A stretch of 64,000 bases of DNA from Nemertoderma westbladi (taxonomy: Eukaryota; Animalia; Xenacoelomorpha). Positions 9,201 through 33,002 of the stretch are shown in pieces. Each line of letters opens with the position of its first letter. Within the stretch, counting starts at the first letter, position 1. Below the pieces are notes generated by a model. That model saw only the letters and a list, made by a program, of their open reading frames with translations, did no database searches and was not told the DNA's origin. The position numbers were made by a program, and so were the translations under genes. The stretch covers positions 22,939-86,938 of the forward strand of contig JAUCBJ010004437.1 of NCBI GenBank assembly GCA_032718475.1. The letters are read 5' to 3'.

Positions 9201-11562
9201 GCGTCTCGGTTGTCATCCGCAGTGGTGCGCACCACGGAACAGGTGTTTGAAGGGCTCGAGATTATCCCAAAAGCTTGGATGGTCATCCAGTACTCCACAG
9301 GTTTCTTATTGAGGTCTCCTTCAGGCCACCACAAAAATCGTAGGCTATCTCGATCCCTATCCAGCGCTTTGACTTGTAAGAACATGCCTTCTATATCTGA
9401 GGCGAAAGCAATGGAATATTGTCTTAATCTTAATAGTATTCCCAACAAGGATTGGAGTAAGTTGGGTCCGGGTAACAATTCAGAATTAAGAGATTGGCCC
9501 ATATAAAGTGTGGAACCGTCAAACACCACTCGTACTTCATGGGGTTTACCGGGTTTGGGAACGTAATGGTGAGTTAAATAATACGTTCTCTCAGTTATAG
9601 GGGTTTCTGCCGGTACTAGCTCCGCATATCCCTTGCTAATAAACTTCTTCAACTGCGTTTGATACATTTCTTTAGCTGAAGAATTTGCCGTAAGGCGTCG
9701 ATGTAGTTGAGCAATTCTTTTCTCCGCCAAAGGTCTGTTGTTAATGAACTTTGGTTCTCGCTTTCGGAAAGGAAGACCGATCTCATATCTACCTTGATCT
9801 TTAAGAAAACGAGTAGTTGTCGCTTGGATCTGCTTGGCTCTTTCTTCCTCCACCGATAGGGCCTTATCGTAGGAGTTGGGCTCTACGACTTCTTGAGTAA
9901 AGAATCTCACGGCGTGTTCATCTCGAGTCTTGGCATTATAACGTTCAATGACGTCATTAAGCTCGTCGTTATAGTCGTCTCGCTCGGATGGGAGAAGGAG
10001 TTGACATAAGTTCACTTGATTTTGCCAAGTCTCGCTTTCCTTAAGGAGATCGATGGCATTCTCCTCATCAAAAAGTTGATGTATATCGTCGTTGTCTGAG
10101 GAGTATGGAGTTCCCTCAGTTGGATCGTCGAACTCACTGTTCTCAACTTCCCATTCTCGCACTTGATATACTTGATCTTTCGGTAATCTTTCTATGAGAG
10201 TTCTACGGGAAGGGCCAGTAAAGTACCAACCTACTCTAGTTCTTACCGCATAGGTTTGTAGTGGCTGCGGTTGAGCAGGCCGTTTCTCCAATGTCTCGAG
10301 CGCCTCATGCGCGTTTTGGCCGATGAGTATTTGCACTCCAGGATAATCAGTCTGGAATCGAGGTATCTTAAGATATTGAATGCTCTCATCCTCGTCCCAA
10401 TTATAAAGGTCTGCTTGAGTAGTAGCGAAATTCTTTATAGCCACCATTTTCACTGACCTTATGCTACGTTCTCCTAGTTCGTCCTGGGGGGTGGACAACG
10501 CACCGACATAATAATCCGCGGTTACTGTGGATTTCCAAACTTGCATAATTCCCGACATGTTTAGCTTAGTTCGGAACTTGGGTTGTCCAGCGAATATGTC
10601 TTCGGCTAGCTCTTTGTCGATGAATGTTCCTGTACTACCTGAGTCAAGGAGGGCGTTCACTACATAACTCCTTTTTGGTCCGTGGACCCTTACCTGTACC
10701 ACAGGAAATTCTCTAATCCCTACATTGGAAGTTGGCGCTTTCCAAAATGGTTGTTGATCAGAAGTAGTTAGGGTAATGTCGCTGTCCGTATCCTTTTCAT
10801 ACATGAGTGCTCGATACACTGTGGTATTTATTGTGTAACAGGATTCGTTTTCGTCGGAGAACTTGTCTGTATAGAATCCTTCCATCTCAGATTGATCAGT
10901 GTCGTTCACATCACTGAATTGGACATGTAGTTCGGAATCACTTACCTGACTCGGACTATTTCGCTCGAATTCCGTGTGCAACAAGATATGATGTTTCGCA
11001 CCGCACTTGGCACATCTTGTGTCAGAGTAACAGGTTCGCCGTTGGTGTCCATGTCTGAGGCAATTATAACACAACCGCTTATCCCACATGACTTCACGTC
11101 TCTCAGTTAATGATTTCTTTAGAAATTCATCACACATATTTAAGCGATGGGTCCCATCACATAGCGCACATTTCGGTTTGATGTTACTTACCTTACTCTG
11201 AGTAACATTGTGTACACTTGTCTTTTCTTCTGGCTTTCTCACCTGAATTCTCTTGGGAGACGTAGGAGGAGTTTTTCTTACCTGTTCTCTCCTGTCATTG
11301 GTTCGAGACTTGAATTTACTTACCTGATCTTTAGGCATTTTATTGACATAATAAGATCTGTCAGTGTCTTTCCCGCTATCTTCTCCTTGAGAAGTCTGGC
11401 TTTCGCCGTCGTCTGTATAACACACTGGTGTTACCTTTCTCCTAGAGACGGGTTTTTCACTTACCTTGTTTTCCGGTGTCTTCTCTCTGGACAGTTTTAG
11501 GAGCTGTAATTTCACTTCTCCATCTAGGAATGACATGAGATCAGCCATGGTAGGGTCTCGTC
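6275..11562 (-). pseudogene. Outer element gag C-terminus plus pol (zinc knuckles, protease, RT, RNase H, integrase) with one in-frame TGA at 7454-7456
   Basis: CALCDGTHRLNMC, CYNCLRHGHQRRTC, CAKCGAKHHILLH (BEL triple knuckle); LLDSGS; YMDD; FGDAS; H..HAG..CIPC; VDLFGP, SDKGTNF, WERL. ORFs 7454-11548 and 6275-7276 are in the same frame. Confidence 0.95.
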
Positions 11563-12100
11563 TGTGACGGGATCCAGGAGGGATCCCGATTTATCCGATG
11601 TGGTATTTAGTCCACGCGTCCCCGCCGTGTATAAGAGTGAAATAAAGATAACTGAGTTCTGAAGTTCGGTGTATAATAATAGGTTATAGGATATAGATAT
11701 ATTGTGAATTATACGGTAGGCGGGATACGGTAACTAAAGTCCCGTGATCCCCTAACTAAACTAATTGGCTGTACCCTACGCTAGCACTGCTGCACTGAGA
11801 TAACTGAATCACTGATTAATAGGTTATTGGTTATATTGCACGGTGGCCTTACTGCTACTCAATCGATGCCATTCCCCCCTCTGATTGGTTAATACCCTTG
11901 TTGGCGCCCCGTGGAGTATTCCCGTTCACTCCACCTATTTCCTCTGGGTTAGGGGTTTGGCCCCTGACCCTCTATTGTGTGCTTCCTTCCCACTCTTATT
12001 GGGATGGCACGAGTTGGTTAATTGCCCAATCTCGTGGCTCCCAATATTGCTTATCGGCTTATAACTTTATGGGGTGTTGGCGGGATTGAATAAGCTAACA
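11563..12100 (-). repeat. 3' LTR of inner element
   Basis: Direct repeat of 25451-25988; TG..CA ends. Confidence 0.98.
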
Positions 12101-12110
12101 CTCCCCCCCA
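12101..12110 (-). other. Polypurine tract of inner element (TGGGGGGGAG)
   Basis: G-rich run abutting the 3' LTR. Confidence 0.85.
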
Positions 12111-12985
12111 TGCTATCTTCCCGGTAAGAAGATAGCATCAACCAAAAAAGTGCGTTACAATCCCGCTGGATCCCGATCTAGTATCGGGTGTGGGGTGGAA
12201 TTCTTTTCTCTAGGAGCCGGTTTTCCAGGCCGCCCCCTATGGGTATGATAACGCTACCCTGTGTGCCTGGCGTCTCATGTCGGGCCGATCGCGCTCACCT
12301 CTTCACACGACCTTTGTTTCCCCAACACTTTCGCCCTATCTCACCTTCACTCTCACCCTAGCTCTCTCACATTCGGACCTCCCCGTCCCTTACTCAGCCT
12401 CTTATCCTCCCCCCCCACACTCTAGAATCGCGTCCGCACTCTCTCTGCACTCCACTCTATCACTTCGATCCTCAACCTCACTTTGACTGTTTTTATCTCT
12501 CCTGACGAACCTCCCCCCCCTCTCGTGCCGTCGCACTCAAGAAGTGTGAAATTGTCAGTTGTCTCGTCCATAGTGCCATAGTCAGTTATTCCCCCCAGTC
12601 CCACTAGCTAGTTGAGAAGGGTTGTATGACTATAGTACTTACTCCAAACGTATGTATTTTACTGCTAATCACTACGTACGTACATACAAATTGCACTTAT
12701 ATGATTATTTGCATTAATTAAATTTGTACTTAATAGTTCGTACGTTACATGCGGCGCCTTCCAGGCGCACCACTTCCCAGTCTCAGTCTCATTCCCTCGT
12801 CCCCGGGAACTTATCTGTTCCTCCTCACGTCCTCTTCCCTGGCCCGTTTCTTGGTTATCACCGCTCCTCTGGCATCATCCGCTTTCTGCTTCCGGACCTT
12901 CGCTGCCACTTCCTTGCTGATCCCGGTCGTCGGCTCCTTGGGCGCTGGTGTTATTAAAGCCCGATACCGCTTCGCCGGTGGCCCC

Positions 12986-15349
12986 TCAGAATGGCCTGGT
13001 TGTCTCCCTCGTGTGGCGTCCCATAGGATCATTTTCATTGCCTTTGGTACGTACGTGTTCCGCCAAGAAATCCCTAAACTCCCTCCGGTTCTCTGGTGTC
13101 CACCTGTCCAGGTACCGTTGCGTATTCATAACTCCGGCGAACGATGCCGCCGTTGCTACTTCTTGATAGGTAAACGGTAGCCTTCGCTTTATGATTTCCA
13201 TGTGGGTCTCCTGGTTTATGAGGAAGAAACCCCACTTGAACTCTTGGGCCTTCATGCGCTGGCGCGTCATGGCCCCGACGTCGGCCCACTCCTCGAGCCT
13301 CGTGAACTTCTCCTCGTCGCTCATCCAGTCGCACTCGCGTCCGTAGTGTCCCCGAAAGTGGCACTTTGGACATCGGTTATGCAACCGTGGACACGCCCCC
13401 ATCCTGTGACTTGGTTCTCTACAGTAGAGACAAAAGGTTCCCCGTTGGAACCGGTATAGGCAGCTGCTTTCCCGATGGGTCTGTCTCCCACAGTAGTCGC
13501 AGCCGAGTACCAATGTCTCGCGTCCCACCTCGTCTTTCGTCCCAAGCGATCTCCGCGGTCTATGGAGTCGCTGGTAGGCGAACTTCTCTACGTTGCTCTC
13601 CCTGTTTACGTCTATCCCTCCGCCCCTCTCGGGCATCGTCTCCCCGAATACTATCCGTGGTGCCGTTCCCGGTTGCTCGCCCAACCTGATGGTGCTCCCC
13701 GCGAAATCCATCGCCGGCTCCTCGTGCACCCAGGTCCGCTTGCCGGATCTGTTCCAGAAGGCCCTCGCCCCACTGGCCGTCACCACCCTTCCGCCAACCC
13801 AGTCCGTGTCCGAGTGGCCTATCCTCTCGATGGGCGGCATCTCTCCGAACTCGTCGTCGTCGTCCTCCTCTTCCGGTAGTGTCTCCAATCCTGGTATCCC
13901 GATGGATCCACTATGTCCCTTCCCGCCTTGGCTCTCGCCCGTAGCTCTCCATCCCTCCAGCTCCCTTAGCTTCCTTGGCGGTTGGTCGCCCTCGGCGCCC
14001 GCTGGTATGGGTATCGTGTGCAACCCCGACGTCGACTGTTTCGGCGATCCCACCGTCCATCCCAATTCTCGCCCTAGAGACTCCCCCGAACTCCCTGACG
14101 AAGTCCAATGAAGTTCGTCTAGGCCCGCCTGTTCCTCGAAGCCGTAACTCTGTGCCCTGGCCTCCTCTTCCCTCTCCTCTGCTTCTATCCTCTCCCGTCT
14201 AGCGACTTCTTCCAGTCGCTTTGCTTCTCGTCTGTCCGCCTCTAGCTGCTCCCATCTCTGATACGGTGTATCTGTCTCCCCGTCTACCAGATGTCGGCTG
14301 TTGTAGTACACCGACTCGCCCTTCAGCCCCGGGTGGTCTACCAGACCGTCAAAGGCCACTTTAAAGGCTCTCCTGTAGCTTAGGGGTGATCCCGATAACA
14401 GAAATGCCCCTGGTTCCCTTTCGATAACTACGGTCATGAATAAGTTAAGCAAACTTATCATCATCCAGTCCTCCTGCAGGATATATCGCTTCTGATATAC
14501 CTTTATCGCTCCTCTGCGAAACTGATATACCTCCTGCTTTCCCGGTCTCGCTCCCCACTTCAGCGAGTTCGCTAGTTCTGCTCCGTATTCTTCCCTAAAC
14601 TTCCCCCAATCCATTGGTTTGTGGCATACGAGCCCCAATAATTGGCCCATCGCCACCGCCCCGCATTGGCCTGAGTTCTCGACCACCCCCAATCCATCCG
14701 GTGCCGTCATAGCCATAAAGACTTTCTGCATATCCAGGAGGTTGGTGGCGTCCGGACCGATGATCCTCTCCGCGTCCTCGCGAATCGCCGATCCCACTTT
14801 CGTCGTCGACTTCTCTCTTACTAAGACTTGTACCGCTTTTGGCAACCGGTCTAATTTCGGCCCGTCCTTCTTCCCATACGTCCCTAGGTCGAATAAGAAG
14901 ATGTCCCCATTTGGCGCTGCCAAATGCAAGAGTATGGTCCTGGCCGACCCTGCCGTTCCTCGTCTCGAACCCGCTTCGTCTTCCACGGTTCCCTCGTCAT
15001 CTAGGATCATATATCCTCCTCTGTTGACGGACTCTATGAATCTTTTCCAGTCCTTCCTCGGCGATTCCCTCGGATACTTCGGAATCCCGAACTTCGCCTC
15101 GTCTCCTCTCACCACGTAGTGGAAGTGTTGGAAGATCGCGTTGTCCAGCGACGGCGTCCCGTAGGTCCCGACCAACCGCTGTTCGTGCGCCTCCCGGAAG
15201 TGATCCTGCAGCGCTCGTGCCGCGTGACCCCTTTCCAACCTCTCGTAGTATCCTCTCGTCTTCTCCTCTGGGTGTCTTTCGGTGAAATCCACCAATATTT
15301 CTTTTCCTCCTGACTCCGCCTTCCTCTTTCTGATCAGCTTACTCGCCAT
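12986..15349 (-). CDS. Accessory protein of inner element: WRN/Mut-7/EXD-like DEDDy 3'-5' exonuclease domain, acidic linker and three CCHC-type zinc knuckles
   Basis: ExoI YMILDDEG; LLHLAAPNGDIFLFDL; LPKAVQVLVREKSTTKVGSAIREDAERI (ExoII); LLDMQKV; ExoIII-like QKRYILQED. C-terminal CDYCGRQTHRESSC, CLYCREPSHRMGAC, CPKCHFRGHYGREC. First ATG at 15349. Confidence 0.8.
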   Translation of the reverse strand: MASKLIRKRKAESGGKEILVDFTERHPEEKTRGYYERLERGHAARALQDHFREAHEQRLVGTYGTPSLDNAIFQHFHYVVRGDEAKFGIPKYPRESPRKDWKRFIESVNRGGYMILDDEGTVEDEAGSRRGTAGSARTILLHLAAPNGDIFLFDLGTYGKKDGPKLDRLPKAVQVLVREKSTTKVGSAIREDAERIIGPDATNLLDMQKVFMAMTAPDGLGVVENSGQCGAVAMGQLLGLVCHKPMDWGKFREEYGAELANSLKWGARPGKQEVYQFRRGAIKVYQKRYILQEDWMMISLLNLFMTVVIEREPGAFLLSGSPLSYRRAFKVAFDGLVDHPGLKGESVYYNSRHLVDGETDTPYQRWEQLEADRREAKRLEEVARRERIEAEEREEEARAQSYGFEEQAGLDELHWTSSGSSGESLGRELGWTVGSPKQSTSGLHTIPIPAGAEGDQPPRKLRELEGWRATGESQGGKGHSGSIGIPGLETLPEEEDDDDEFGEMPPIERIGHSDTDWVGGRVVTASGARAFWNRSGKRTWVHEEPAMDFAGSTIRLGEQPGTAPRIVFGETMPERGGGIDVNRESNVEKFAYQRLHRPRRSLGTKDEVGRETLVLGCDYCGRQTHRESSCLYRFQRGTFCLYCREPSHRMGACPRLHNRCPKCHFRGHYGRECDWMSDEEKFTRLEEWADVGAMTRQRMKAQEFKWGFFLINQETHMEIIKRRLPFTYQEVATAASFAGVMNTQRYLDRWTPENRREFRDFLAEHVRTKGNENDPMGRHTRETTRPF

Positions 15350-15861
15350 TCCGAACACTACACTCGCTCACCTGTAGGGTGGTGCCTTAGCAAGGCGCAA
15401 TACAGATGAGTGATGTATTAAGATGTTTCGTACAGTTCGATAATGGCCTACTTTTCTACTTAACTGCGCCTTTCAAGCTTAATTTAATCTAATTAATTTC
15501 GGAGCTAGTAAATCAGCCTAATTTACAATTTCCGTCCGTTACTTTTATTATGTTCTAGAACGACTTTCCTTGTGTTACCACTATTTTCCGATTTTAGCCC
15601 TATTCTATTTATTTATTTATTTTGCTTTGATTCTACTGTCCTACTACTTACTACTGCCTATGGATTTATTCTATTCTCTCTCTAATCCATATTCTGGCCT
15701 ACTCAGTGGGCCTATGCAGTACAGCAGTATGCGTCGTGTGGCCACACGATTTATCCAGCTGCACTCATATGCCCCCCTCTCGCTACTAACTCTACTTACT
15801 GCTAATTAATATCTATATCCTATTTACCCCTTTTATCTCTCACTCTCTCTCTCTAACTAAT

Positions 15862-16550
15862 GGTACTACGTACCTACTAACTCTAACTCTAACTAGGTAC
15901 TATGTACCTACTAACTCTAACTAACTATTGGTACTACGTACCTACTAACTCTAACTAACTATTGGTACTACGTACCCTCTAACTCTAACTCTATCTAGGT
16001 ACTACGTACCTACTAACTCTCTAACTATCGGTACTACGTACCCTCTAACTCTAACTAACTATTGGTACTACGTACCCTCTAACTCTAACTCTAACTAGGT
16101 ACTACGTACCTAGTAACTCTCTAACTATCGGTACTACGTACCCTCTAACTCTAACTCTAACTAGGTACTACGTACCTACTAACTCTCTAACTATCGGTAC
16201 TATGTACCCTCTAACTCTAACTAACTATTGGTACTACGTACCCTCTAACTCTCTAACTATCGGTACTACGTACCCTCTAACTAACTAACTCTAGGTACTA
16301 CGTACCTACTAACTAACTAACTCTAGGTACTACGTACCTACTAACTAACTAACTATCGGTACTATGTACCCTCTAACTCTAACTAACTCTAGGTACTACG
16401 TACCTACTAACTAACTAACTCTAGGTACTACGTACCTACTAACTAACTAACTATCGGTACTACGTACCCTCTAACTCTAACTAACTCTAGGTACTACGTA
16501 CCTGCTAACTAACTAACTTTAGGTACTACGTACCTGCTAACTAACTAACT
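15862..16550. repeat. Tandem array of 21 units of 32-34 bp with hairpin core GGTAC-TAC-GTACC and CTAA repeats
   Basis: Counted directly; lies between the integrase stop and the accessory ORF. Confidence 0.95.
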
Positions 16551-16654
16551 TTTATTTTTATTTTTATTTTATTTGTGTGGGAAGGGCGTCTCGCCCTCAA
16601 TCCCACCCCCCTCAGTCCAAGACTTGGACGACTAAACTCCACTCTAACTCCGCT

Positions 16655-19600
16655 CTAAGGTGCTCCTTCTAAGAGACAGCATTTACCTACCGCTCTCCTG
16701 TAGGTTTTTCTGTCCTTCGCACCTATCTTTCCACCTATCCGCACTTCTACCGATCGGACTCTTCCGTCCTCGTCGGAGTAGGTGTCTACAACTCTCGCCA
16801 ACCGCCATTGGTTGTTGATGATAGTATCATCCGTGACGATTACGAGATCTCCCTCTCTTAACTCCCTGTTCGGCTTCCTCCACTTGCTTCGCTTATGGAG
16901 CGTGGGTAGGTATTCTTCTACCCACCTCCTCCAATACTCTGCGCTAATTGCTTTAGCTACTTTCCAACTTTGGCGGGAGTGTATATCATCTGGGTCTACA
17001 CCCCGCATATCGATGGTCGCTGGCCTTTCCATCAGGAAATGGCTAGGCGTCAACACGTCTAATGACTCAGGGTCATCATTCTCCGGGTATAGCGGTCTGC
17101 TATTAATGATCCCCTCGCACTTCGCAAGTACTGTCCGTAAGACGTCTTCAGTGACCATGTGGGTGTTCATCAGCTTCGTCATTAGACGTTTTGAACTGCC
17201 CACGAGTCTCTCGACGCATCCTAATGTATGTGGTGCATACGGCGTCCTTCTCTCCCACTTCACTTGTCGTCTTCTCATGGCCGCCCTGACTTCTTCTCCC
17301 TCCAAGATGTCTATGGCCTCTGCCATCTCACTCTCTGCGCCCACAAAATTGGTGCCGTTGTCGCTATATATCACTGCGATCGTCCCACCTTTGCAGTCCC
17401 TAAACCTTTCTAAGGCGTTAATGAATGCTGATGCGGTTGCATCTTGGGCGAGTTCTATCCCTACCGCCGCGTATTGTTGCATACGAAGATAATACCGTAG
17501 CGTTTCTCCGTGTGTCGCATCACCTTGATCTTTATCGGCCCGAACATGTCCACACCGCAATGCGTAAATGGCGGGTCGTGCTGTCTTAACCTACTCGCCG
17601 GTAGTGGTGCCATCTCCTGTACGGCTCGTTCCTTCTTCGCTCGTCGGCAGGTCTGGCACTGCCCCACTACCGCTTTAACCTTCTTCCTTAGTTGTTTGAC
17701 CCAATAGGTCCTCCTTATCTCTGTGAGGGTTCGGTTGGTGCCCCCATGCAGTATCGATTTGTGGGAGTCCCATATGATCTGGTGGACTATAGGCGATCCT
17801 GTGGGAACGATGATGGGTTTCGGTGGCACGACTATACTGTTGTTGTATCCCACCCTAGAATTCATTACTAGAATCCCATCCTCGTTGAGTTGTGGCGACA
17901 GCGTGATCAACTCGCTATCCCGTCGGAGGTGCTGTTGGTTACCGACGCGTTCCACCTCGTCGCCGTAGTTCTTGCGTTGTTCATAGCGGATCACTGCCTT
18001 GGCCGCTCCTTCCAGATCTATGGTTGTCCTGGTCTTCTTGTCCTTGCCGACTCCCGCAAGGAAATTCCCAAAGGCTCTCCAGTACGCCACTAGTTTCTTG
18101 GTCTTATACCAACTAGAACTGTAGCTGAGGAGTTTATCCGTCGGGTTATCGCACAGTTCCCTTCCTGGTTGCACGTCCCTAATCTCCCTCACCATCTGGG
18201 AGTATATCTCTTCTCCCTCTGAATCTCCTTCTCCTTCTGATACTGGTTCCGAGCCCGGGTCCACCTTCCTCATCGGCGGCCAGGCCTCTCTATCGCTCAG
18301 AAATTGTGGCCCATGTTGCCACAATACTTCCTTCTTCAGGAAAGTGTGGCGTTCCACGCCCCTCGACAGCAAGTCCGCTGGGTTCTCATCTGTTGGGCAG
18401 TAGTGCCACCTTTCTAGTTCTGTGCTCGCCCTTATTTCGTCCACTCTATTCGCGACGAATATCGGGTATCTCGTCTTTTCGTTGTGTAGCCAACCAAGCA
18501 CTACCATGGAGTCCGTCCAGTAGTGTGTCTCCACTATGTTGGGAATTGTATCCACTAGGTAGGCTGTGGCTCTAACTCCTAGTCTCGCAGCTGTCAATTC
18601 TAACTTGGGAACAGATGCTGAATCTGGCGGCGTTGACTTAGCTTTGCTAAAGGCAAGTCTGGGCTTGTGAGGCCCCTCTCGTTGTACTAAATAGAGTGCC
18701 GCTCCGTATGCCTCTAACGACGCGTCGGAGAACATATGTAAGTCCAGATTCGTCATGTTCCCGTCCGGAAAATACACTCGCGGCATGTTGTATGTTCCCA
18801 TCCTCTCCAAGTCTCCTGTCCATTTGCTCCACTGTTTCTTGATGTCCTCTGGTACCTCTACATCCCACTCATCCTTCAATTTATATACTCTCTTGAGTAT
18901 CTGTTTCCCCGTGACTAGTAGTGGGGATGCTAGGCCTAGGGGATCGTATATCCTTGCTATATACGATACATAACCCCTCTTCGTATGGGTGTCTGCGCCC
19001 TCCTGGCTCAGCTGATACTTCAGTTCGTCTGTTTTCCTATCCCACACGATTCCCAATGCCTTCTGCTGGGATTCCGTTCTCTTAATCGCCATGTCCTGTC
19101 CTTTGGCTGTTGTAGGGTTGTCCATGGTCGATTCTGGTTTCTTGTCTTCTATTTCCTTGATAAATTCTTCTGAACTGGATTGGAATTTGGTCAGGTTGAA
19201 GCCGGATCCTTTCAGGATGTCGCGAACCTCGCGCCCTGTTTCCAGTATCTCCTCAACCGTATTTCCAGACTCCATACCGTCGTCTACGTAGAAGCCGCGT
19301 CTGATCATATCGACGGCCCTACTGCTATATCTATCTTCCTTCCCCTTTACCGTGTCTCTCACTGCCATAGTCGTCGTAAATGAGGACGACTTGGCCCCCA
19401 TGTTTTGTACTACCATCTTATACGCTGGTATTACCGGCGGTTCTTCTTCGCCGTTATACCATAAGAAGCGTTGACTGTCACTATCTTCTTCCGTTACACG
19501 TACCTGGTTGAACATGCCTTCTATGTCACACGTGAAGGCGTGTTTCCCGTTTCGAAACCTAAGTAACACCTCTATGCCCGAATTGTAAATATTTGGGCCT

Positions 19601-22600
19601 TCCAACAGGTAATCGTTTAAGCATTTTCCGTCGGTCTTTGCCGATGCATCGACTACCATCCTCAGTTTACCTTTCTTTGGGTCTAATGCTACGTGGAGTG
19701 GCAGGTAGTATGTCCTGTCCGTATTCGGCTCGTCGACCGGTAACTCCACGGCCCATCCTTTCTCGACGTACTTCTTAATGGTTTTGTGAATGTACTCGTT
19801 CTTCTCGGGGCTCCGTTTTAGTGTTTGTTTCAGCTTGCGGAGTCTCGTGAGTACCATCCCTCTATTATCGGGTAGCGGTATCTTCGGTAGTTTCCATACC
19901 ATTCCTATTGTATACCGCCCCTCATCACACGTCATCGATTCCTCCACGCTTTGTAGAGCCTGTTTGTCTTCTACCGAGGTCCCGACCCCGGTCTCTTTCA
20001 GTCCCTCAAAGTCTTGCCTGAGCAGTCTTTTAAGCTGCTCCTCTGCACCCTCATCACCCATTTCCTGCATTGTTCCCGCGAACATGCATCCTGATGTCTC
20101 CGACATCCTGAATGGTATCTTGCTCTTAATTGGACCACTCAGCGTCCACCCGAATGGCGTTAGTATAGCCACCGGGTCGCTCTGCTTGTCTTCGCCGAAG
20201 ACCGTTTGCATTCTTTCGTGGGCCGTCGGGCAGTCCATTCCTACTATGATGGATACCTTCCTAACGTCCACGTCTGGGATCGAGAAGTCAATGTCGTCCA
20301 GGAATTTGTATTGCTCGACCTCGATGTTGGTTGGCCGCCTGGCATTGATGTTAATTGACTCTATTACTTGGATGGGATCGATGGTTGCCCCATAATCGCA
20401 TCCTGGTGCTACTGCTGCAATTGCGCACCGTCCTGTCCTCATCTCTAGGATCTCATCTTTGCTAGAGATGGTTGTTACCGCCATCCTGCTTGGCCTTGTT
20501 CTCAATCCTATTTCTTCGGCTACCCATTCCTCTACTAATGTGAAGGCAGCTCCGCTATCAACCAGCATCAGTGTTGTTACTGATCGATTGCCTTCCCCGA
20601 TCACTCGTACTGGTACTACTCCAAGTAGCACTGTTCCTCTCTTCTTCGCCCCTACTGTGCTCGTTGCCATCGTCTGGCCTCTCCTTTGGCCAAACTTGAC
20701 CGGCTTCTCTTGGCATTCCCTGGCCTTGTGTCCACTCTTCACACATCGCGAGCAGATTTTATTGCTCGACGCGTAATCTATCTGGTCTTGCCTCGGTAGC
20801 GCCTGCCAGTACCTGCAGTTCATGGTTTTATGAAGCGCATTTGCGTGTAACTGGCATTTGCTCTTTGGGTCGTAGCCCTCTTTATACAATGCATTGCGTA
20901 TCGCAGTTATGTTTGTACCAAAGTCCCTACTGTTCTTATTGACTGGATTTGGCCTACTGGACGTACTGGGGTTATGTTTATTCATGTTGTTATTGTTCCC
21001 CTGTCCGTCCCTTGATGTTGTCTTATCTTCGTTTGTCTGTGGACTTGCAGTCCCCTGCGTCGCTGCATATGGCAATGATTGCCTGAGTCTCGGTAACGCG
21101 TTCGATGTGTTGTGCTCTGGTTTTGGTCTATGGTAGTCTGTCTTTGGTCCCTTTCCCAGGCTGTCTTCACTATAGACTGGGTCCGTTATTAGTTCGGCCT
21201 CGTAATTTAAGAAGTTTGACATTTCTTCTAAACCTGGTTCCGCACCCTTCTTGTCTCGGGTGGAGAAAGCGATCTTCCTCCATTTGTTGCGCAGCCAGCT
21301 CGGTAGTGCCTGCGCTATCGTGGTGATGTTATTGGACGCGTTGAGCTCGTATGGCGCGTCTAGCGTCTTCAGCACGATCAGCGCCTTCTCGACTTTGTTA
21401 GCAAACGTCTTAATGCTAACGGGATTATCCTGTAGCCCACCCGATGTTATGCCTCTCAGCGTTTGCCTGATGATCTTGGCCGGGTGCCCGTATTCCCTAT
21501 CCAGTGCCCGCCATGCTGTCGTGAAGCCGCCCTCTATTCCCTGATATTGCCTCACGATGTTGTATGCTGGGCCTCCCGTGTACACATGTAGATACTTTAG
21601 GCACTCCGCCTGCGTCAAGTTTTTTGTTAGTATTTCGTTACTATACATTCGCCGAAACTGTAAGTATTCTTCCGGCCTGCTCCCATCGAATTTGAACGGT
21701 TCCGCGGGTGGTAATTCGATCCTCGTTTTCAACGCATCGATCAACGTGGCCATCCCCATTGCCTGCGCTTCTAATGGATTCGACGGGTGCTGTATAGTTT
21801 CCCCTGTCTGGTGCGGTTCGTCCGTCCTATTTCTTGATCTTCTCTGACTCGGATATGTCATCGGGGGTAGCGGCCCCCTCCATATGTCTGTGTCACACGA
21901 CCTGTTTTCGTCCAAGGGTTTCGTTGTTCTTGCTACCATCGGGGTATATTGTTGATATTGTGATGGGGGAATGTCACCCTGTCCCCCCCCCCCACCGGTA
22001 TGTCTGGTACTGGGGTTGATGTTAATACGTTGGGGCCCATGCACCTATCCGCAACAACTCCCCCCTCCCCTGGGTATATGTTATGTCCCTGCATGCTGTA
22101 GTCATACTGCTGTGCTGGTACCGATATAGGCCTATCAGCTTCTGGCCTACCCGCCGGTATGTATTCCGCGACTTCCGGGTTTAATTCCGTCGTTCGCGCT
22201 ATCCTATCGCCTATATAGCCTCTCTCAGTATGGCCTACGGTATGTGCAGTAAGGCCTATACTATGTCCTACAGTCTGCATGTGTTGTTCGGGATCGAAGT
22301 TTATTCTTCTTGAATAATCCTCCCCGCGGCTACCGTAATCTCGTCCGGAAGGTACATTCCGTCGGAAAGTTTCTCTCCGACCCCCCTCTCTACTGTTCTC
22401 ATCCTCGTACTGGCACATCGCGTACCCTTCTCTCGGCGTGCAATGCGCCTCGCCAGGTCGCATCTCTCCGGGGCGACGGCAATCTCCCGGAGTCCGACCC
22501 CACTGACTCTCCGTTCTCATCTCGACTACCGACGGCTCGCTGTCCGTCCTCGCTCTTCTATCGTTTGCGGCGATACTTCTACTACTGTCTTCCTTTCTTC

Positions 22601-25371
22601 TCCTATCAGTGGAATATTCCCGCTCGCGAGATCTCTCGTCGACCTCCCGGTTAAACCCCACTGTTCTTCTTTCCTCCTCTGGTCGGGCTCGACGCTCCGT
22701 CCGCCCTCTCGCGACGTCAACCTGTCCTTCCCTGCCCGGTCGCACGTCGCTGGGGATACTCGTAATCCCCCTATTACTTTCCGTCACCGGTTGTTGCGGT
22801 TTACCTATTTCGGCCCTCGCATTATCCGCTGACGGCTGTGGGACACTCTCTGCCCCCCCCCCCCTTCTCGCCGCTAACTCTCTGTTGTGGGGCCCTCGTA
22901 GCCCCCCCCCCACTCGCTACATCTAACTTCGCTACCTCTTTCCCCGCTATTATATACCTCTCTAGTCGACACATCAACCCTACCACGGTCGGGTCTGTTC
23001 ACCCCCGCCTCTCCCTCTGCTATTGCGTGGCCTACCAGGCCCTCTACTCCCTCCCTACCAACCACGTGGCTTACCAGGCTCTCTGCTCCCTGTCTACTAA
23101 CTACGTGGCCCACCAGGCCCTCTGCTCCCTGTCTACTAACTACGTGGCCTACCAGGCCCTCTGCTCCCTGTCTACTAACTACGTGGCCTACCAGGCCCTC
23201 TGCTCCCTGTCTACTAACTACGTGGCCTACCAGGCCCTCTGCTCCCTGGTTATGTAGGCCCGACGTGTTTGCATTAATAGCACCTATATTAGAAACGGAA
23301 TCAATTTGCTCGTTTGAAACAAAACCATTTGCATTATTCTGCGCGACTACGTTATTTGAGTTATTTTGTAAATTCGGGCATGGGTCATTATTTAAATTAT
23401 TCGAATTATTTTGCGTAATTGCGTTATTTAAATTATTTTGTAGGTCCGAGTTCGGATTATTATTTTGATTATTTGAATTATTTTGCGTAACTACATCAAC
23501 ATTAGGATTATTTTCTACATTAGTATTGGGATTGTTCTGATTTAAATTTAAATTACTACCACTAGGCAAAGTATTTCCTGCAATAAAGGTTTGATTAGTG
23601 TTATCCCATACGGTACTATTAATATCAACAACGTCTACAGTACCAATATTATTATTACCCCCCCCCCCCCCCCCCCGTTCGTACGGTTGCACCAGTCTTG
23701 AGTCTGTCGTGCGGTCCCTGTCAGTGGGGTATTAATAAATGTTTCTACGGCCCCCGGCTCCCTAAAAATACCCGAGCCGGCCCCGCTTTCAGACGGCGCT
23801 TTTCGCACGAGTTGCAACTCGTGCGCCCGTTTAATCTCATCTCCCGCAGACTCACTCTGTAGTCTCTCTATTTTCTTGTTTTCTCCCTCAGTCTCTGCCA
23901 CTCTTCTCTCACGCTCCCGGGTGTCCCTAATGGCCGACTCTGCAGCACTCTTAATACTCTCCCTTCGTCTCACTTCGCGCTCCTTACGTTCCTTTTCCTC
24001 TCTCGCCTCACGCTCCTTGCGTTCCGCCTCACGCTCCTTGCGTTCCCTTTCCTCCCTTGCCTCACGCTCCTTGCGTTCCCCTTCCTCTCTCGCCTCACGC
24101 TCCTTGCGTTCCTTTTCCATTCTCGCCTCACGCTCCTTGCGTTCCGCCTCACGCTCCTTGCGTTCCGCCTCACGCTCCTTGCGTTCCCTTTCCTCCCTTG
24201 CCTCACGCTCCTTGCGCCCCCTTTCCTCTCTCGCCTCACGCTCCCTACACTCCCTTTCCTCTATCTCATCATACTCCCTTAGGCTTTTCAAAGCCCTTTC
24301 GGCCCTCTCTCCTGTTTCTTTAAGCAATGCCGTTTCCCTCTCTAACCGCACTCTCCCTTCCTCTAGCCGTTCCTTCATTTCTCTATGATCTTTCGCTGCC
24401 ATGCTGAGACGATATTCGGCACCTATCTCTCTCACCGCTCTTCCTTTCGCGGAGGATGTAACAGACTTATCGGTTACGACGGATTTCCCCCGCCTTCCCG
24501 ACCTACTGATTTCCCCCCGCTTCCCGGAGCTTTCTCCGACCGACGAGGCCGAATCCTCGGGGTTAACCTCGGATTCGCCCCCTTCGGGTTCCCTCCAGCC
24601 TACTGGTTTTACTCCCCGGGCATCGACCAAGTATGGCCCTATGTACACTGACGCTGCACTAGGTTCCATACTCCCACACTCCCATAGTTCAAACAGTTCC
24701 CCGGCAATCCCGTGTGCTCTCGTTTCGGCTAGTTCTCTTTGCCCAAAACGTATTAGGTAATTTATGTGTCTATCCGACTCACCTAGTCGCTTTCTCAGTC
24801 TCACCTCGTCTACCTTCGCCCCTTCCTTCTTGGCGTCCTTTATCATCCTTCGGGTCGCGTTGTAGGCCCGTCGAAGTCGCTCTGATACCCCGACGTCCTC
24901 GTCGCCGACCTCTCCTCCGGCCCTCCGGGTTCGACGTCGTACCGGCGGCTCCACCGTCGCCGTTCCGGTGGGCCGTCCGTCGCCCTCGGCCTGTTGCTGG
25001 CCGGCGACATCGGTACCAATCTCTCCTCCGTCTCTTCGCGTCCGGCGTCGTACCGTCGGCCCCACCGTCGCCGTTTCGGTGGGCCGCTCGTCGCCCTCGG
25101 CCGGTAGCTGGCCGGCGACATCGGCGCGCCGTTCTCCGTCTCGTGTCGACTCGTCTCTTTCTCCCTCGACCTCGTTCTCTCTATCCTCCGGCTCGAGTCC
25201 CTCTCCTCTCAACTCGGATTCTGATTCCAGACGGTCCCCCTCATCTTGGACTTCCGGGTCACCCGTTACCGATGGCTCCGGCGTCGTGGGCCTATACCGC
25301 CTGGTCGCGGCCTCGCGGATCGTTTGATCTTCGTCCGGGGTCCGCGTCGGTGTCTCGCCCGATTCACTCAT
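16655..25371 (-). pseudogene. Inner element gag-pol polyprotein, broken by frameshifts (three at G-runs, one 1-nt loss near 17467)
   Basis: Consecutive ORFs 23635-25371, 22874-23692, 21933-22913, 17461-22044, 16655-17560. BEL gag core (PFKFDG..YLQF), CSRCVKSGHKAREC, LVDSGA, FYVDD, FSDAS, HGG..CQTC, VDMFGP, SDNGTNF, VERLV. Confidence 0.93.
23026..23248 (-). repeat. 39-bp coding tandem repeat (QGAEGLVGHVVSR, about 5.5 copies)
   Basis: Visible tandem units; only one minus-strand frame is open across them. Confidence 0.9.
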
Positions 25372-25450
25372 CTCGTTTGTGGCTGATGATTCGGCTAGCT
25401 AGGTTACAGTTCTTGATGTTCAACTAGGGCGGCAGCTCGGATTTAGTTAC

Positions 25451-25988
25451 TGTGACGGGATCCAGGAGGGATCCCGATTTATCCGATGTGGTATTTAGTC
25501 CACGCGTCCCCGCCGTGTATAAGAGTGAAATAAAGATAACTGAGTTCTGAAGTTCGGTGTATAATAATAGGTTATAGGATATAGATATATTGTGAATTAT
25601 ACGGTAGGCGGGATACGGTAACTAAAGTCCCATGATCCCCTAACTAAACTAATTGGCTGTACCCTACGCTAGCACTGCTGCACTGAGATAACTGAATCAC
25701 TGATTAATAGGTTATTGGTTATATTGCACGGTGGCCTTACTGCTACTCAATCGATGCCATTCCCCCCTCTGATTGGTTAATACCCTTGTTGGCGCCCCGT
25801 GGAGTATTCCCGTTCACTCCACCTATTTCCTCTGGGTTAGGGGTTTGGCCCCTGACCCTCTATTGTGTGCTTCCTTCCCACTCTTATTGGGATGGCACGA
25901 GTTGGTTAATTGCCCAATCTCGTGGCTCCCAATATTGCTTATCGGCTTATAACTTTATGGGGTGTTGGCGGGATTGAATAAGCTAACA
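25451..25988 (-). repeat. 5' LTR of inner element
   Basis: Direct repeat of 11563-12100. TATAA-like box about 30 nt upstream of a TCAGT Inr-like motif near 25694 (minus strand). Confidence 0.98.
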
Positions 25989-28844
25989 TCGTCGTTGTTG
26001 TTCCATCATATATAACACTTTCTTATCCCAGCGTGTACCTACTCCACCCTTCGGTAAAGTAGAAGCCACTGCTCTAATAACCATAGCATTCTGATACTCA
26101 TGAGACTTACCTAGCCAATCTAATTGTCTGCAGATCTCCTGAATTTCATCGGAAAACTCTATAATTCCGCTGCTAATAAACTTTCGGGGCGCTACCAACT
26201 TTGCATACAAATACCCAGCTATGTTATTCCTATTACCATACCTGATGTTTCGTGTATCCCAAACTTGTCTTAATCCGTCTGGATGTCCAATAAACTTTAA
26301 CGCCATTAACTTGGGAGATCCTTCCAAGCACTCGATGAGGAATCTAAGTTTCTCTCCATTAGATAGCACAGAGTTCTGTATGTTATCTTTGTAATATTCA
26401 TTAAAAGGTAACCATTTCATCTCATCTCCATTGAACTTGACGATCTCTCCCACCTTTACCGCTTGCCGGGCTTCGGTTCTAGCCATTTGACGCGTAAAAC
26501 TTTCTTGGGCCATCGTGTTGTTTAATATCGAGTTATCGGTATATAAATTTCTCGGATTATGATCCGGTCTATAGGGAATATCATTATCAACAGGTCTATA
26601 ATTACCCTTAATAGGGTTCACTATAGGAGTTTCTACTTCGCTAGCAGTATAGATGCGTGTAGGCTCCACACCTTGCGCATGAGATACTTCAGACCTAACA
26701 GGTTGACACATTGTTACAGGGGGTGGTGGTATACCGTTTTGTGTATTTACTAATTTATCGCGTTCTAGCGCGATACTTTGCTGCACTTCTTGCAACTCTA
26801 GCCTACTTTCCCTTACTGTGCCCTTGAATTGCTGAACGGTCTCCTGCATCTGTCCGAGCAGGAGATCCATCCCCCGTCGTCTCTCATCCACCCATTCGAC
26901 CACCGAAGCGGGATTCGCCAACGTTGTAGCGGGCGGACAAGGGACAACGGGCGACAAATCATGAATATTTCGCTCAGAGTCCAGGGCATGAACTGTCTCA
27001 TGGGCTGTTCTGCTGGGCACAGGTAGCTTGGTACTGTGCAAAGGGAATTTAGAGGTAGGTTCAGGGAGTACAGGTGTCTCTACCACCGAAAGGGTGGCTT
27101 CGGGAACAGGCCTAATTATTTCAGGCTCATCTACTATAGTAGGGAGTCTCTCTATTGTAATTATTTGGTCTGTGGGTTCTGTACTACCTAAGTTGGTGTT
27201 ATTTAGTTGCCTTCTAACAGCTGGAGGCAAATCAGGCAATTTCTGACGGTGGGATGTTCTTTTACGTCTGCTTAGGTGAGATCTATTTCCTTTGCCTTCA
27301 GTATCGGTGGTATTGCCTTCCTCAGATGATGTATATCCCTGTCTTTTGGGAGTAGATCGATTCATCATCTACATATTACTAGCTGTTAACTGTTTATTTA
27401 TGCAGTCTTGATTCTCCTGAATATTTTCCAATTCTAATTGGGCAATCTCTTCAGCCGCTATCCGCTCCGCTTCTGCCGCTGCTCTTGCCGCTTTTCTTTC
27501 CATTTCGGCTGCTTTTCTTTTCGCTTCTGCCTCTGCCGCTGCCGCTTTTCTTTTCGCTTCTGCCTCTGCCGCTGCCGCTTTTCTTTCCATTTCGGCTGCT
27601 TTACTTTCCTCTTCGGCTGCTTTCCTTTCGGCTTCTGCAGCTGCTACTGCTGCGTTCTTTCTGTCTTCTATGCGTTTTTTCTTCACCCTTTCTTCTTGGT
27701 CTCTAGCGATGCAGAGTTGTTCATCGAATTTAGCTTGGTTCGCCGCTAACCTATCCACGCCGATGGCGTCAAGCACACGCTGTGCTCCTTCACTATTAGG
27801 GCTAAGTCCATTTAGCCTTCTCCTCAACTCTTCATCTCCCAAAAAACGCTGATAGTCTGACAGATAGATGTCAATGGCATCCCTCTTATGCGGTTTCTCT
27901 GCCGTCGCTTCACTTTCCACTTGGGAAAAAGTAGCGTCTGTTGATTCTCCATGGGTTGAGCGCTCCTCCAGCTGAGCTTTCCACTGAGCTGTTCCTTGAA
28001 CCTGGAGACTCACCCGTTGAAACCAAGTCTTTACGGCAACTTGCAACGACGTGTCTTGTCTTCTTTTAGAAGCCTCTTCAAAGGCTGATAATATTAGCCT
28101 GATTCGCAGAATTCTTTCTCTAACTTGATAAAGCAGTTGTCCCTGCTCTTGAGGTCCTTGAGGTTGTTGAAATAGTTGTTCTTTTACTCGCTCCATAGAG
28201 CTGAAGAATCCCTGTGCGTATCCGGCTGCGGACCTCTTCCACATAGCTGGATCGATGGTTTCCTTGGCTACTCCCATCCGGTGTATGTCTTCCCAGGCAG
28301 CTTCTGATAAATCAAACGGGAGTCCGGGTCCGGGGAAGTTCCATTGCGACTCGACCATAGACTTCAGTTCTTCCCTTGTGTATCCCTCATAACTATCTTT
28401 AGTTGATCGCTTACTTCTCGCCCAATCGATCTGGTGTTCTTCCACCGCGATCAATAACCTAGTGAGTACGGCTGCAGGAAGGATGAGAAGGGGATCCGAA
28501 TAAACCGCATCCGTCATCCTTGCTCTGCGCTCGGGTGTCAGCTCTACAGTATCTTCACTACTGGAGCTGTCGGGCCGCTGAGAAATAAGTTCTTGACTCG
28601 CGGGTTGTTGCTGTTCCGCTGCTTCTTGGTCCCGCTTGACCTGAGCTCGAGTGCCTATGATAGACCTATGATGTTGGACCAGCCTAGGTTCTGTTATTAC
28701 TACTGGAGGGATGACCTTCCTCACAGTGGGAGGTGAACTGAACTTAGGACTAGACGGTTCTACACCTCTATCTGAGTCGCAGATAGTTACATCTAATAAA
28801 CTGTCTGACAGGTTCTGCTTAGTATCAGACATGTTGGTTTGCAC
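25989..28844 (-). pseudogene. Outer element gag N-terminal part (coiled-coil extension plus BEL gag core) with one in-frame TAG at 27369-27371
   Basis: ORFs 27369-28844 and 25983-27368 abut in frame (ATG TAG ATG ATG). IVKFNGDEMKWLPF..EKLRFLIECLEG is the BEL gag core motif. Truncated by the inner LTR. Confidence 0.9.
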
Positions 28845-30169
28845 AGTTGAATGCCTACTGCTATATTACAGTCTAAGCAAGTCTAGTAATTCAGAATTAA
28901 CTGCTAGCCTAGTAATTAATTACCGATACTGCTACTCAGTGTAGCGTGATATATATATAATGTTAGAATACCGGTATGCTTATGGTATATATAAGTATTA
29001 TTACAGACTAGGTTTTTTACAGAATACCGGTATATAATTTTAGCACAAATATATATAAATATATATAATAGGCCTATCGTGGATACCGGTATGCAGTTTA
29101 CACTTATATAAGTATAATTATTAACTAAAATTAATTACAGAATACCGGTATGATTTCAGCTTAAGTTTATGAAAATAAAGATAATAAGCCTATTGTAAAT
29201 ACCGGTATATCAATTATTTTAAATAATTGAATTTCTGAATTTTAAGGGTTACTTGGTTACTTTAACTTACTTTATTACCGTTATTTAAGCAGTAGTCCAA
29301 CTGATATTGAGACCTAATTGTTATATGGCAGGCCTACTATTTATAAATCGTTTGAGTTGATTTATAATATATATATACCCGTTTAATGGGTTTTGTCAAT
29401 GTTTGAAATAAATGTTATTATTTCTGGGGGAGTCACTACACATAAGCTGTGCGCTCTCAGTGGAGTGCTACTTGTTAGACACTAAAACAAATAATTCTAA
29501 TTTACCTAAGTTACTTAATACTACAAATTACGTACAATTCGGGTTGAGATTACAATCTCTAAATAAACACAAAAAATTTAATTACAAATACACAAATACA
29601 AATTTTTAGGGTAATTTTACAAGAAGTCTACTAACCAGCCTAACAAAGGGTTAGAATATCTGGTTATTACAACGGACAGGTTACTACGGTATTTGAAAAT
29701 AATAAGTAGTAGTAAATATACTGCGTTGTCCAGATAGGAAAATACCACCGCCTGACGACCTATAACCGTATCGCTATAGGTACTACGTTATGTATCACGG
29801 AGTGTCCCTACCTAGAAGTTAATTACTGCGGTCTACCAGAACCAACGTGCCTATTAACCACTTTACAACACAAATACACTGCCTACACACTAATTGCTTT
29901 CGGAAAGCACTGTACACTAAACCCTAAATTAGGTACAAGTACTTGTATGACAAATAATTAGTAGTTAAAAATACTTGAACAGCTAAAAGAACCACGGTAT
30001 CTGCCGGAGTGACCAAAGCACAAAATCTCCAGTCTTTACCTACGCCGAGCAGCCCTGATGTAGTACCGGGGTTAGTTTAACTATAACGGTATGTATAACA
30101 AACACAATTACTGTAGGAATAAACTTGGGGATATGAATGTTGCGAATAATCGCATAAACTCTGAATAAT

Positions 30170-30740
30170 AAATATTACACTACGCGTACAGACTATTCAA
30201 ACAAAATGCAGACCAAATACTGACAGACTACTATCAAGCCTAAACAAACTACGGTATATGCAGACTCCGAAATGGTTAAGTAGTATGCGTTCTAACCCAG
30301 TAGTACGACTTATTCTTTAGATGGGGATTTACCTTACAGCTATGGCTGCCCCTACTTCCTAACCGTTCTTTATTGGACAGATGATCTACACACACCGAAA
30401 TTTCCTCAAACCCAACAGCAGCCAGACAACTATCCAGCCTACAAATTATCTAAATAAAATTATACGCTACCCGTACAGACTACACAAACAAAGTACAGAC
30501 CAAATGCTGGCGGACTCCTATCAAGTCTAAATAAACCACAGGACATGCAGACTCCGAAATGGTTAAGTAGTATGCGTTCTAACCCAGTAGTACGACTTAT
30601 TCTTTAGATGGGGGTTTACCTTACAGCTATGGCTGCCCCTACTTCCTAACCGTTCTTTATCGGACATACACTCTACATGTACTGCAATCCGTTCAGACCT
30701 AATCAACAGTTAGCCAACAGTCAAGCCTACAAATTATCTG
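30170..30740. repeat. About 287-bp tandem duplication in the outer element's 5' leader
   Basis: cagactccgaaatggttaag.. starts at 30261 and 30548. Confidence 0.9.
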
Positions 30741-31020
30741 TACAATCTGAGCAGGCTTACACGCCTTCTGCTCAATACTGGCCTATAAATAAATAAAACT
30801 GACAGAAATAAGTAAGCTCCAAAAGAAACAAGGGGTGTACAGTCCCTAATCTCTTAAACAGCCTACCGGTATACAATACCACAATCGAATAATACTGCTG
30901 TACTTGTACTGTAAGTAAGTACCGGTCCGGATGATCAGGCAGTCAGGCCTACTGGTTACCGGTCGACCGGTACTTTCGACTAGATTGCTTACACCGCAAT
31001 CCAGAAGCAATATCTGTTAT

Positions 31021-32167
31021 TGTTTGCGCTTTTAAGACCTTTGACAGTTTAACCTGCCAAATTAGGATGTCTTTTAGATGATATATAGTCTTTAGCCTAT
31101 GACGAGTATTTAGCCATTAGTCATTAGCCGAAGCCAGTCTATGCGCAATCATTCACCCGCTGGATATACCCGGGAGACTGAATTCGGAAGCTTAATGATT
31201 GATGGTGTAAGCCTACTGTATTATTCGACTGATCGTAATATATAATCTCTGACAAATATTATTCACTTTCGGGAAATATTAACAGTTCCTTTAGGACGTG
31301 GCGCTCTAAATATGTAAACAGAGTTATGACTTAAACTAGACACAACGAAAAGGCTATAGATTCACGTATATGGCGCATTCTTTAGGAGATACTTTGTTAT
31401 CAGTTACACTCATACACAATGCTGCACAATACTGCACACTAATCTGCCGACCTTCACTAAATTTGGTCACGTATAAAGAGAGCAACATACAATTTATGTC
31501 GGGCATATGAAATAGCATTAGATTCACTTCAAACCACTTAACATAGGTCGCAATCGTTTATCTGTAACCGGTCTCTCTAACCTTTAGTATATCAAGAAGA
31601 TTGGGATGTCGGACTATTGATCAGTATTCCAAATATAATCTTCCATCAACAAATATAATGAATAACCGACAGTAAAAGCAGTAATATTAGTAATTTATGG
31701 ATAGTGAGTGAGTAAGTGAGTAGATAACAGATATACGTTCTATAATTAAGCCTACTAATGTAAGAATAAAGACTGAAACACGGAGGTGCCAAAAGCCGGT
31801 GTTCTTAGGCTCTGGGCAAAAACATAACACTGAACTACTGAGTTTCTGTATCCACCTCCAACACAGAGACAAAAAACGCTCTGATTGGTCAACCGAACAA
31901 CAAGAGAACAAAGAAACAAAGAAATGTCGACGTGGCAATATCAGCTGTTAGCCGTCATCATGGTAGCGACACTGTTTTCAAGAGTATCTAGCTTATCGCG
32001 TCACGAGATTGCGGATTATGTCCTCTAAAGTACAAATACAGAAGAAATGACTTTTATGTCCTCTAAAACACCAGTGCAGTAAGGACACGGCCCTTTTATG
32101 CCTGGTAAACCAACCACAGAGTACTTTACGGGGAAAATAACCGGCTAATTACGCAAAAGCTTTTACA
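31021..32167 (-). repeat. 5' LTR of outer element (1147 bp)
   Basis: Direct repeat of 1866-3017. Confidence 0.97.
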
Positions 32168-32958
32168 TGTAGGCTATGAATAAAGAAAATGTTTTTTTAT
32201 TTTTGTACCTAATCCAAGCTTCTTGTTCCTTAATCCTTATTTTGGATTTGACGATTCCATTTATCCACTTAGGTTTACTGCCTGACTTAGTTGGAATGTT
32301 ACGTTTACATGTGGAAACCAGCTCTTTGTGAAATAGGTCCCATAATGAATGTATGTCTAACTGCTCTAAGATGAAAGCCCAATGTGGGTGTGTTGATCAT
32401 GAACTCGTCATTGGTCAGGATTAAATCTAACAGACTAGGGGCACAGCCATTACGATACAGAGTGGGTTTATCAACATGTTGGAAGAGAAAGTTGTCCTGA
32501 ATGCAAGATATGATATTGGTTTCAAAATTCTCATTTGAGGAAAGTGTAGTTCAACATGTATTAGGCATGTTGAAGTCTCACAATAAGAACATATCTTTCT
32601 TTGTTGGCGACACAAGCATTGTCAAGCAACTCGCATATGCCCTGTGTATTAGATTCTGGATTTGATGGACTGCGGTAGATGCATCCCATTACAAGGGAGT
32701 CTTTTAGGTTGCTGCTGTAAATCCTTGTCCATAATGATTCAAGTAGGCTGGTAGGTTGTTGTGTAGAGTTTCTAATGAAGGGAACTTTGTAGTCAGTTGC
32801 AATGCAACACACCATCCTTGACGACATAAATTATGATCCCACGATAACATTGTTTAATTTGAAAGTTAGTCTGAGTAGAATACCCAGCCCAAACAGCCAG
32901 TAATTATTTTCGGATATACAGTAGAAAGTGTTATGTATTTGGGTAAAACTAACACCTC

Positions 32959-33002
<44 letters not shown>

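Follow-up and report, generated by a model that had tools for sequence, protein, structure and literature searches.

Two nested elements in the window

The window, by which we mean the whole 64,000-nt stretch of Nemertoderma westbladi DNA analysed here, contains two nested long terminal repeat (LTR) elements, both on the minus strand, which were found by self-comparison of the window. The outer element has the following features.

1866-32167, minus strand: outer BEL/Pao element, 15.9 kb after subtraction of the inserted inner element
1861-1865 and 32168-32172: outer target duplication, TGTAG
31021-32167, minus strand: outer 5′ LTR, 1147 bp, TG...CA
31882-31890, minus strand: CCAAT box
31772-31776, minus strand: Inr-like TCAGT, preceding the outer motif by 40 nt; two more at LTR 327 and 335
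31724-31734, minus strand: predicted self-primer (the outer motif), LTR 434-444, 703 nt before the LTR end
31010-31020, minus strand: outer primer binding site (PBS), 11 nt, adjoining the LTR, without TGG
25983-28865, minus strand: gag-side frames of 498 and 461 aa with DUF1759, a stop between them, interrupted by the inner insertion
6275-11590, minus strand: protease-RT (YMDD)-RNase H-integrase frames with Peptidase_A17 and DUF5641, a stop between them
3489-4634, minus strand: outer accessory ORF, 381 aa, no family match
3018-3025, minus strand: purine-rich tract adjoining the 3′ LTR
1866-3017, minus strand: outer 3′ LTR, 1152 bp
2574-2584, minus strand: copy of the outer motif in the 3′ LTR

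The inner element is composed as follows.

11563-25988, minus strand: inner BEL/Pao element, 14.4 kb
11558-11562 and 25989-25993: inner target duplication, TCGTC
25451-25988, minus strand: inner 5′ LTR, 538 bp
25618-25630, minus strand: predicted self-primer, LTR 359-371, 167 nt before the LTR end
25439-25450, minus strand: inner PBS, 9 exact nt adjoining the LTR, a bulge and 3 more pairs
25393-25675, minus strand: predicted long collinear stem, LTR 314-371 with leader +1 to +58
16655-25398, minus strand: gag-pol in several frames with DUF1759, protease, RT (YVDD), Peptidase_A17, integrase zinc domain and DUF5641
12986-15367, minus strand: inner accessory ORF, 793 aa
11563-12100, minus strand: inner 3′ LTR, adjoined by a purine tract
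11730-11738: copy of the inner 9-mer in the 3′ LTR

Both nested elements are young: the outer LTR pair is 98.3% identical, and the two 538-bp copies of the inner LTR differ at a single position. Reading frames are broken in both. The summed contig depth of the outer element exceeds that of its flank by a factor of hundreds, which suggests a highly repeated family, although this depth figure is not a copy number. Many variants occur among the aligned contigs, and the 40 variant rows listed, of 1476, fall outside both motifs. The leader of the outer element contains a 290-bp tandem duplication (30160-30739), and a 32-bp tandem array (15849-16550) lies between the inner pol and the inner accessory ORF.

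To our knowledge, BEL/Pao is the least studied of the LTR superfamilies. The outer and inner elements belong to it by their Pol. Both encode BEL/Pao-type domains, namely DUF1759, protease, RT, Peptidase_A17 (E = 3e-36 and 5e-40) and DUF5641, in the order protease-RT-RNase H-integrase, and both have TG...CA LTRs and a 5-bp target duplication. The RT region of the outer element has 120 homologues, with identities of at most 42%; nearly all carry the same BEL/Pao families, and those with a named source are from sea urchin, corals, fish, molluscs, a schistosome and insects. In RT-RNase H, the two elements are 34% identical. According to the ICTV profile of the Belpaoviridae, members have an 18-nt PBS for tRNA-Arg or tRNA-Gly and a length of 4.2-10 kb (PMC8742986), whereas the elements of the window, at 14.4 and 15.9 kb, lack a tRNA-type PBS and carry extra ORFs. 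We treat the PBS and length traits of the profile as descriptive and base the placement on Pol.

Complementarity between the PBS and the LTR

The first-pass annotation of this DNA had reported that the 11 nt following the outer 5′ LTR are an exact complement of a segment inside the LTR, with zero spacing and no UGG, and all of its coordinates (31010-31020, 31724-31734 and 2574-2584) were reproduced. LTR 434-444 has its exact reverse complement in the 11 nt that follow the 5′ LTR with a spacer of 0, and folding adds six pairs with bulges (31735-31741 with 31003-31008). In the inner element, 25442-25450 exactly complements 25618-25626 (LTR 363-371), and a bulged C and three further pairs follow. 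The polarity is that of a primer, because the 3′ base of the motif pairs with the first base past the LTR and the 3′ end faces the LTR end. Both motifs end in A-pyrimidine. TGG is absent from the first 16 nt after either LTR, and neither tRNA genes nor Rfam matches were found within the window. AATAAA and ATTAAA are absent from both window LTRs.

A criterion for self-priming given in the accessible part of one source is a PBS-LTR complementarity of at least 10 nt located 0-5 bp from the LTR (PMC6317226). The outer match lies within these limits, and the inner match, at 9 nt, falls below them when they are applied strictly. The chance of about 3e-4 originally assigned to the outer match is too low, since composition-aware null models give 1.4e-3 to 3.9e-3 at offset 0 and 3.8e-3 to 7.9e-3 with offsets of 0-5. 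For the inner match, the same type of model gives 1.7e-3 to 6.8e-3 at offset 0 and 0.8-3.9% with offsets. The joint chance of both matches at offset 0 is approximately 1e-5. The duplex energies are unremarkable, with 5% and 9% of matched 12-mers being equally stable.

Pairing in relatives

Relatives were drawn from metagenome contigs (80 loci) and genome bins (20 loci); none was found in viral contigs. The twenty contigs from bacterial genome bins (L081-L100) encode BEL/Pao Pol, several of them as whole elements, and are likely animal host DNA. The 3′ end of the LTR was visible in both copies at 19 of the 100 loci, and these 19 relatives together with the two elements of the window constitute the two-copy-defined set (n = 21). 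Seven more loci had a whole 5′ LTR whose end was placed by eye, and these are biased by how that end was chosen. A uniform rule, in which the match is either contiguous or continued across a GT-AG joint at an offset of 0-5, was scored on all elements.

Under this rule, pairing of at least 10 nt (10-15 nt, within 0-5 nt of the LTR end) was found in 16 of the 21 two-copy-defined elements, against a background of 0.42% among 4004 internal 30-mers. When each PBS was compared with the LTRs of other elements, 9 of 420 cross pairs reached at least 10 nt, and five of these were between sister families. The set includes near-duplicates (L057/L077), and L002 and L006 have a common site. The five misses are the inner element (9 nt); L088, which has one mismatch in both LTRs; L023 and L042, in which the LTR end was misplaced and correction by eye gives 11 and 12 nt; and L027, which has a TGG-type site, as does its sister L045, and pairs over just 4 nt. 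Among the seven by-eye elements, six conform to the rule outright; the remaining one does so with a weaker donor, whose copy in the 3′ LTR of that element is canonical. A match was present in 3 of 30 single-LTR contigs, many of which lack one of the two sites.

Covariation between the PBS and the LTR had been suggested as a check on self-priming, and matched changes were indeed observed. L082 and L084 differ in three letters of exon 1 and in the facing letters of the PBS, and L030 and L034 have seven letters in common and differ in four, on both sides. Three or four pair types are found at each of positions 3-11, counted from the primer end, in a 26-row table, which comprises all rows rather than independent families and in which the last two pairs are invariant because the script imposed them. 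The A-pyrimidine end occurs in 21 of 24 unconstrained matches and lies one pair later in the remaining three. Moreover, 17 of 22 relatives have AATAAA or ATTAAA downstream of the predicted cut and before the LTR end, which is the placement needed for strand transfer.

Such pairing could also be structural, serving RNA circularisation, packaging or a translation switch, with a host RNA, for instance a half-tRNA, displacing the helix to act as the primer. The inner stem is far longer than a primer needs, and half-tRNA primers without TGG are known in Ty1/copia, according to the accessible part of the same source that gives the 10-nt criterion (PMC6317226). However, all 26 matches place the start of the helix 0-5 nt from the LTR end, and 22 of the 26 are 10-12 nt long; the 3′ end is directed toward the LTR end. 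Approximately two dozen different PBSs each match their own LTR, a pattern that a common set of tRNAs would not yield, and the tRNA-type relative has no helix. We therefore consider the structural explanation unlikely. The proportion of pairing relatives, the changed letters and the matched changes instead support the earlier proposal that both nested families self-prime, and on this comparative evidence we estimate a probability of roughly 0.8 that both elements prime reverse transcription with their own RNA, in a manner similar to Tf1.

A putative primer interrupted by a predicted intron

When only contiguous matches were counted, 4 of the first 14 relatives had matches of 9-11 nt (Fisher p = 5e-4, 12 families). 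In many other relatives the contiguous match, following a pyrimidine tract and AG, ends at 6-8 nt. When a GT donor was connected to this AG, 14 of 28 elements had a longer match of 10-15 nt, and every one of them exceeded all of its approximately 190 own internal controls. The splice rule was fixed after the idea of a splice joint was in hand and was widened once to allow AAG. The TCAGT sequences at the start of the short matches in relatives had been candidates for initiators; they were ruled out, being pyrimidine tracts with AG acceptors.

In most relatives, the match thus becomes complete only when a predicted GT-AG intron of the LTR is removed, and the upstream exon would supply 3-9 nt of the primer. 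The two elements of the window represent the unsplit form. No splice-made primer was found for them under the uniform rule, and a search with any GT and any AG returned only the weak donors GTGAAC or GTTATC. The predicted splice-made primer pertains to the relatives and not to the two copies in the window. In L024, the 3′-LTR copy of the predicted donor is canonical, and the 5′-LTR copy departs from it at a few bases (509-530 vs 7766-7785).

Phylogenetic position

Quick trees place the pairing relatives, including one Schistosoma protein, in a clade with SH-aLRT values of 96-98. The elements of the window lie on long branches outside this well-supported clade, and the outer element is about equally distant from the tRNA-type L027 (41% identity) and from the pairing relatives (38-43%). 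The evidence from the relatives therefore applies to the window by analogy. A single clade uniting the window elements with the pairing relatives is neither rejected nor demonstrated, either with the inner element (AU p = 0.25) or without it (AU p = 0.47). The notion of a self-priming BEL/Pao lineage, put forward in the first-pass annotation, is supported by the comparison with the pairing relatives, to which the two elements on which it was based may or may not be joined in one clade.

This uncertain tree position would suit the view that the two matches in the window are due to chance, that another primer is the true one and that only the relatives self-prime, as would the unremarkable duplex energies and the modest single-element probabilities obtained with offsets (0.4-3.9%). 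Nevertheless, both matches lie at offset 0, share the A-pyrimidine end and the length seen in the relatives and lack TGG, and their joint chance is very small, as given above. We regard a double coincidence as most improbable.

The contiguous relatives do not form one clade (AU p = 2e-24), and five changes of state are counted. Their scattering among the split ones fits repeated intron loss, with no firm root. The clade of the relatives may lie near the Sinbad/Sailor lineage, as judged solely from the Schistosoma protein inside it (see also the accessible part of PMC6238403); Sinbad was described from S. mansoni, according to the part of PMC554778 that is available.

Position of the predicted primer in the transcript

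The first-pass annotation had pointed to Inr-like motifs upstream of the primer motifs and deduced that the primer may be internal to R. Such motifs do exist: counted from their A, TCAKT motifs precede the outer motif by 40, 97 and 105 nt and the inner one by 58, 67 and 75 nt. However, initiators are not enriched within 120 nt upstream of the primers (8 of 24 elements vs 7.1 expected, p = 0.42), so the motifs do not support an internal primer.

An internal primer nevertheless remains plausible on other grounds, because otherwise the 3-9 nt contributed by the upstream exon in the spliced relatives would represent a very short first exon. The predicted stem of the inner element is also consistent with it. 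This stem is collinear over 58 nt, with most pair probabilities at 0.9-1.0, and begins just after the TCAGT cluster. Among 16 LTR windows it has the highest stability, and its part outside the core has p = 0.066 (197 of 3000 shuffles as stable). In shuffle tests, neither element of the window shows a significant continuation of the helix past its core. The outer helix is predicted with a probability of 0.5-0.98 for transcripts starting at LTR 392-434 and of at most 0.02 for starts at LTR 326-334.

In another form of self-priming, transcription would start just downstream of the motif, and the primer would come from the 3′-LTR copy or from the partner RNA of the particle. Initiator-like sequences of the type BBCABW occur three times at 4-16 nt past the outer motif (LTR 448, 456 and 460), and L024 has a TATA-like box 15 nt before the primer start. 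However, such short matches are common, with 21 in the outer LTR, and splicing in the 3′ copy alone would tend to erase the template intron, which most relatives retain. Pairing between the leader and the sequence upstream of the motif is also weakly favoured (mean z of −0.6 to −0.7; 3-4 of 23 at p < 0.05). Priming from a 3′-copy or partner RNA is, in our judgement, decidedly unlikely.

Proposed mechanism

According to the reading that we prefer, in which the 5′ end of the RNA primes its own copying, transcription would begin within the 5′ LTR, either at the motif or upstream of it. The motif would then pair with the PBS, closing a loop of 703 nt in the outer element and 167 nt in the inner one. 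The RNase H of the element would cut once, just 3′ of the motif and after the conserved A-pyrimidine, and RT would extend the freed 3′ end back to the cut. The cDNA would next transfer to the 3′ LTR copy, which would serve as the template for restoring the motif and all other sequence upstream of the cut. Since a single cut 3′ of the motif would be enough, as it is in Tf1, the 3′ trimming considered previously is unnecessary.

For most relatives, removal of the LTR intron by splicing would generate the motif. We propose that its position upstream of the cut allows this intron to persist, since it is recopied from the 3′ LTR. If the 3′-LTR copy itself were spliced, the intron would be lost, and unsplit forms such as the two in the window would result. 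We believe, with moderate confidence, that a large branch of BEL/Pao elements in marine animals does entirely without tRNA priming and uses instead a primer of approximately 11 nt from its own RNA, which is made mostly through host splicing of an LTR intron, so that splicing licenses replication. The primer would form the 3′ terminus of a longer, capped fragment that a single cut after A-pyrimidine sets free, and unsplit forms would arise repeatedly.

Accessory open reading frames

The inner accessory ORF resembles a DEDDy-type 3′-5′ exonuclease in its language-model features: 24 of 30 atlas hits fall in PF01612-bearing clusters (score 0.92, 164 shared features). Three Cys/His knuckles can be read from its sequence. 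Pfam, PDB sequence and homologue searches gave no usable match for this ORF, and one representative match to it proved to be a repeat artefact. A single-sequence fold reached a pLDDT of 31. According to the accessible part of one report, ORF3 of the bdelloid LTR elements Juno and Vesta is a DEDDy exonuclease (PMC5408684). The inner element likewise has an extra DEDDy-like ORF after pol; unlike these elements, it belongs to BEL/Pao and its ORF carries knuckles, and the likeness is one of features, with the fold only predicted.

The outer accessory ORF is unrelated to the inner one, and no family was recognised for it. A decayed relative (53392-54334, minus strand; 54-66% amino acid identity) lies elsewhere in the window, with no LTR or pol matches nearby. 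A role for the accessory proteins in primer processing had been suggested. However, the distance from pol to the 3′ LTR is only 121-783 nt in 17 pairing-type relatives, and searches of the 100 loci with either ORF gave no match. The accessory ORFs are thus missing from these pairing relatives and are therefore not general priming factors.

Comparison with known self-priming elements

The accessible parts of the relevant papers describe a similar arrangement in Tf1 and Tf2 of Schizosaccharomyces pombe, Tj1 of S. japonicus, the Tf1/sushi group and Tcn1, in which the PBS adjoins the 5′ LTR and complements an 11-nt LTR stretch (PMC4600332), and a cut by RNase H between bases 11 and 12 of Tf1 frees the primer (PMC7175516). 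The Tf1/sushi group has a Ty3/gypsy chromovirus Pol, whereas the Pol of the window elements is of the BEL/Pao type, and they are not members of that group. In addition, the primer of Tf1, as described there, is the first 11 nt of the RNA, whereas that of the window elements may be internal, with a loop of up to 703 nt, and that of the relatives spans a predicted splice joint. The TAR lineage of plant Ty1/copia (Houba, Osr-1) is also comparable, as its self-priming was predicted from complementarity of at least 10 nt at 0-5 bp; it differs in its copia domain order and plant hosts, and the accessible text mentions no splice-made primer (PMC6317226).

Our literature search, which covered few subscription papers, found neither self-priming in BEL/Pao nor a splice-made primer; an earlier remark is possible, for instance in Frame et al. 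2001, Repbase Reports or GyDB. The accessible portions of four papers (PMC554778, PMC3118150, PMC6238403 and PMC8556966) do not mention PBS, tRNA or priming terms. This is likely a known mechanism in a superfamily where we did not find it in print.

If our reading is correct, LTR elements have abandoned tRNA in all three superfamilies, BEL/Pao being the third with self-priming, and the relatives would provide the first primer made by the spliceosome. The elements would be beyond silencing by tRNA fragments at the PBS (our extrapolation from the accessible part of PMC7472051), and scanners for PBSs would be expected to find nothing in them. The splice-joint form would link replication to host splicing and predicts a named joint and RNA end for each family, which can be checked in existing RNA data from marine invertebrates.

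Other features of the window

Approximately 220 nt past the outer 3′ LTR lies a related gag remnant (1387-1647, minus strand, 64% identity), beyond which the sequence is AT-rich and possibly LTR-like. A third LTR end of the outer type (63928-63992, 86% identical) runs off the window; no PBS follows it, so it belongs to a 3′ or solo LTR. The right flank of the outer element (32173-32998, plus strand) ends with a run of 37 A, like the 3′ end of a non-LTR element. Inverted arrays with a 20/40-bp unit (62426-62627 and 63153-63514), approximately 525 nt apart, are perhaps a foldback-type DNA element. Finally, 15-bp repeats at 56724-57078 and 60241-60721 (plus strand) encode Met-Gly-Ala-Pro-Gly in two open frames, which are possibly exons of a host gene.
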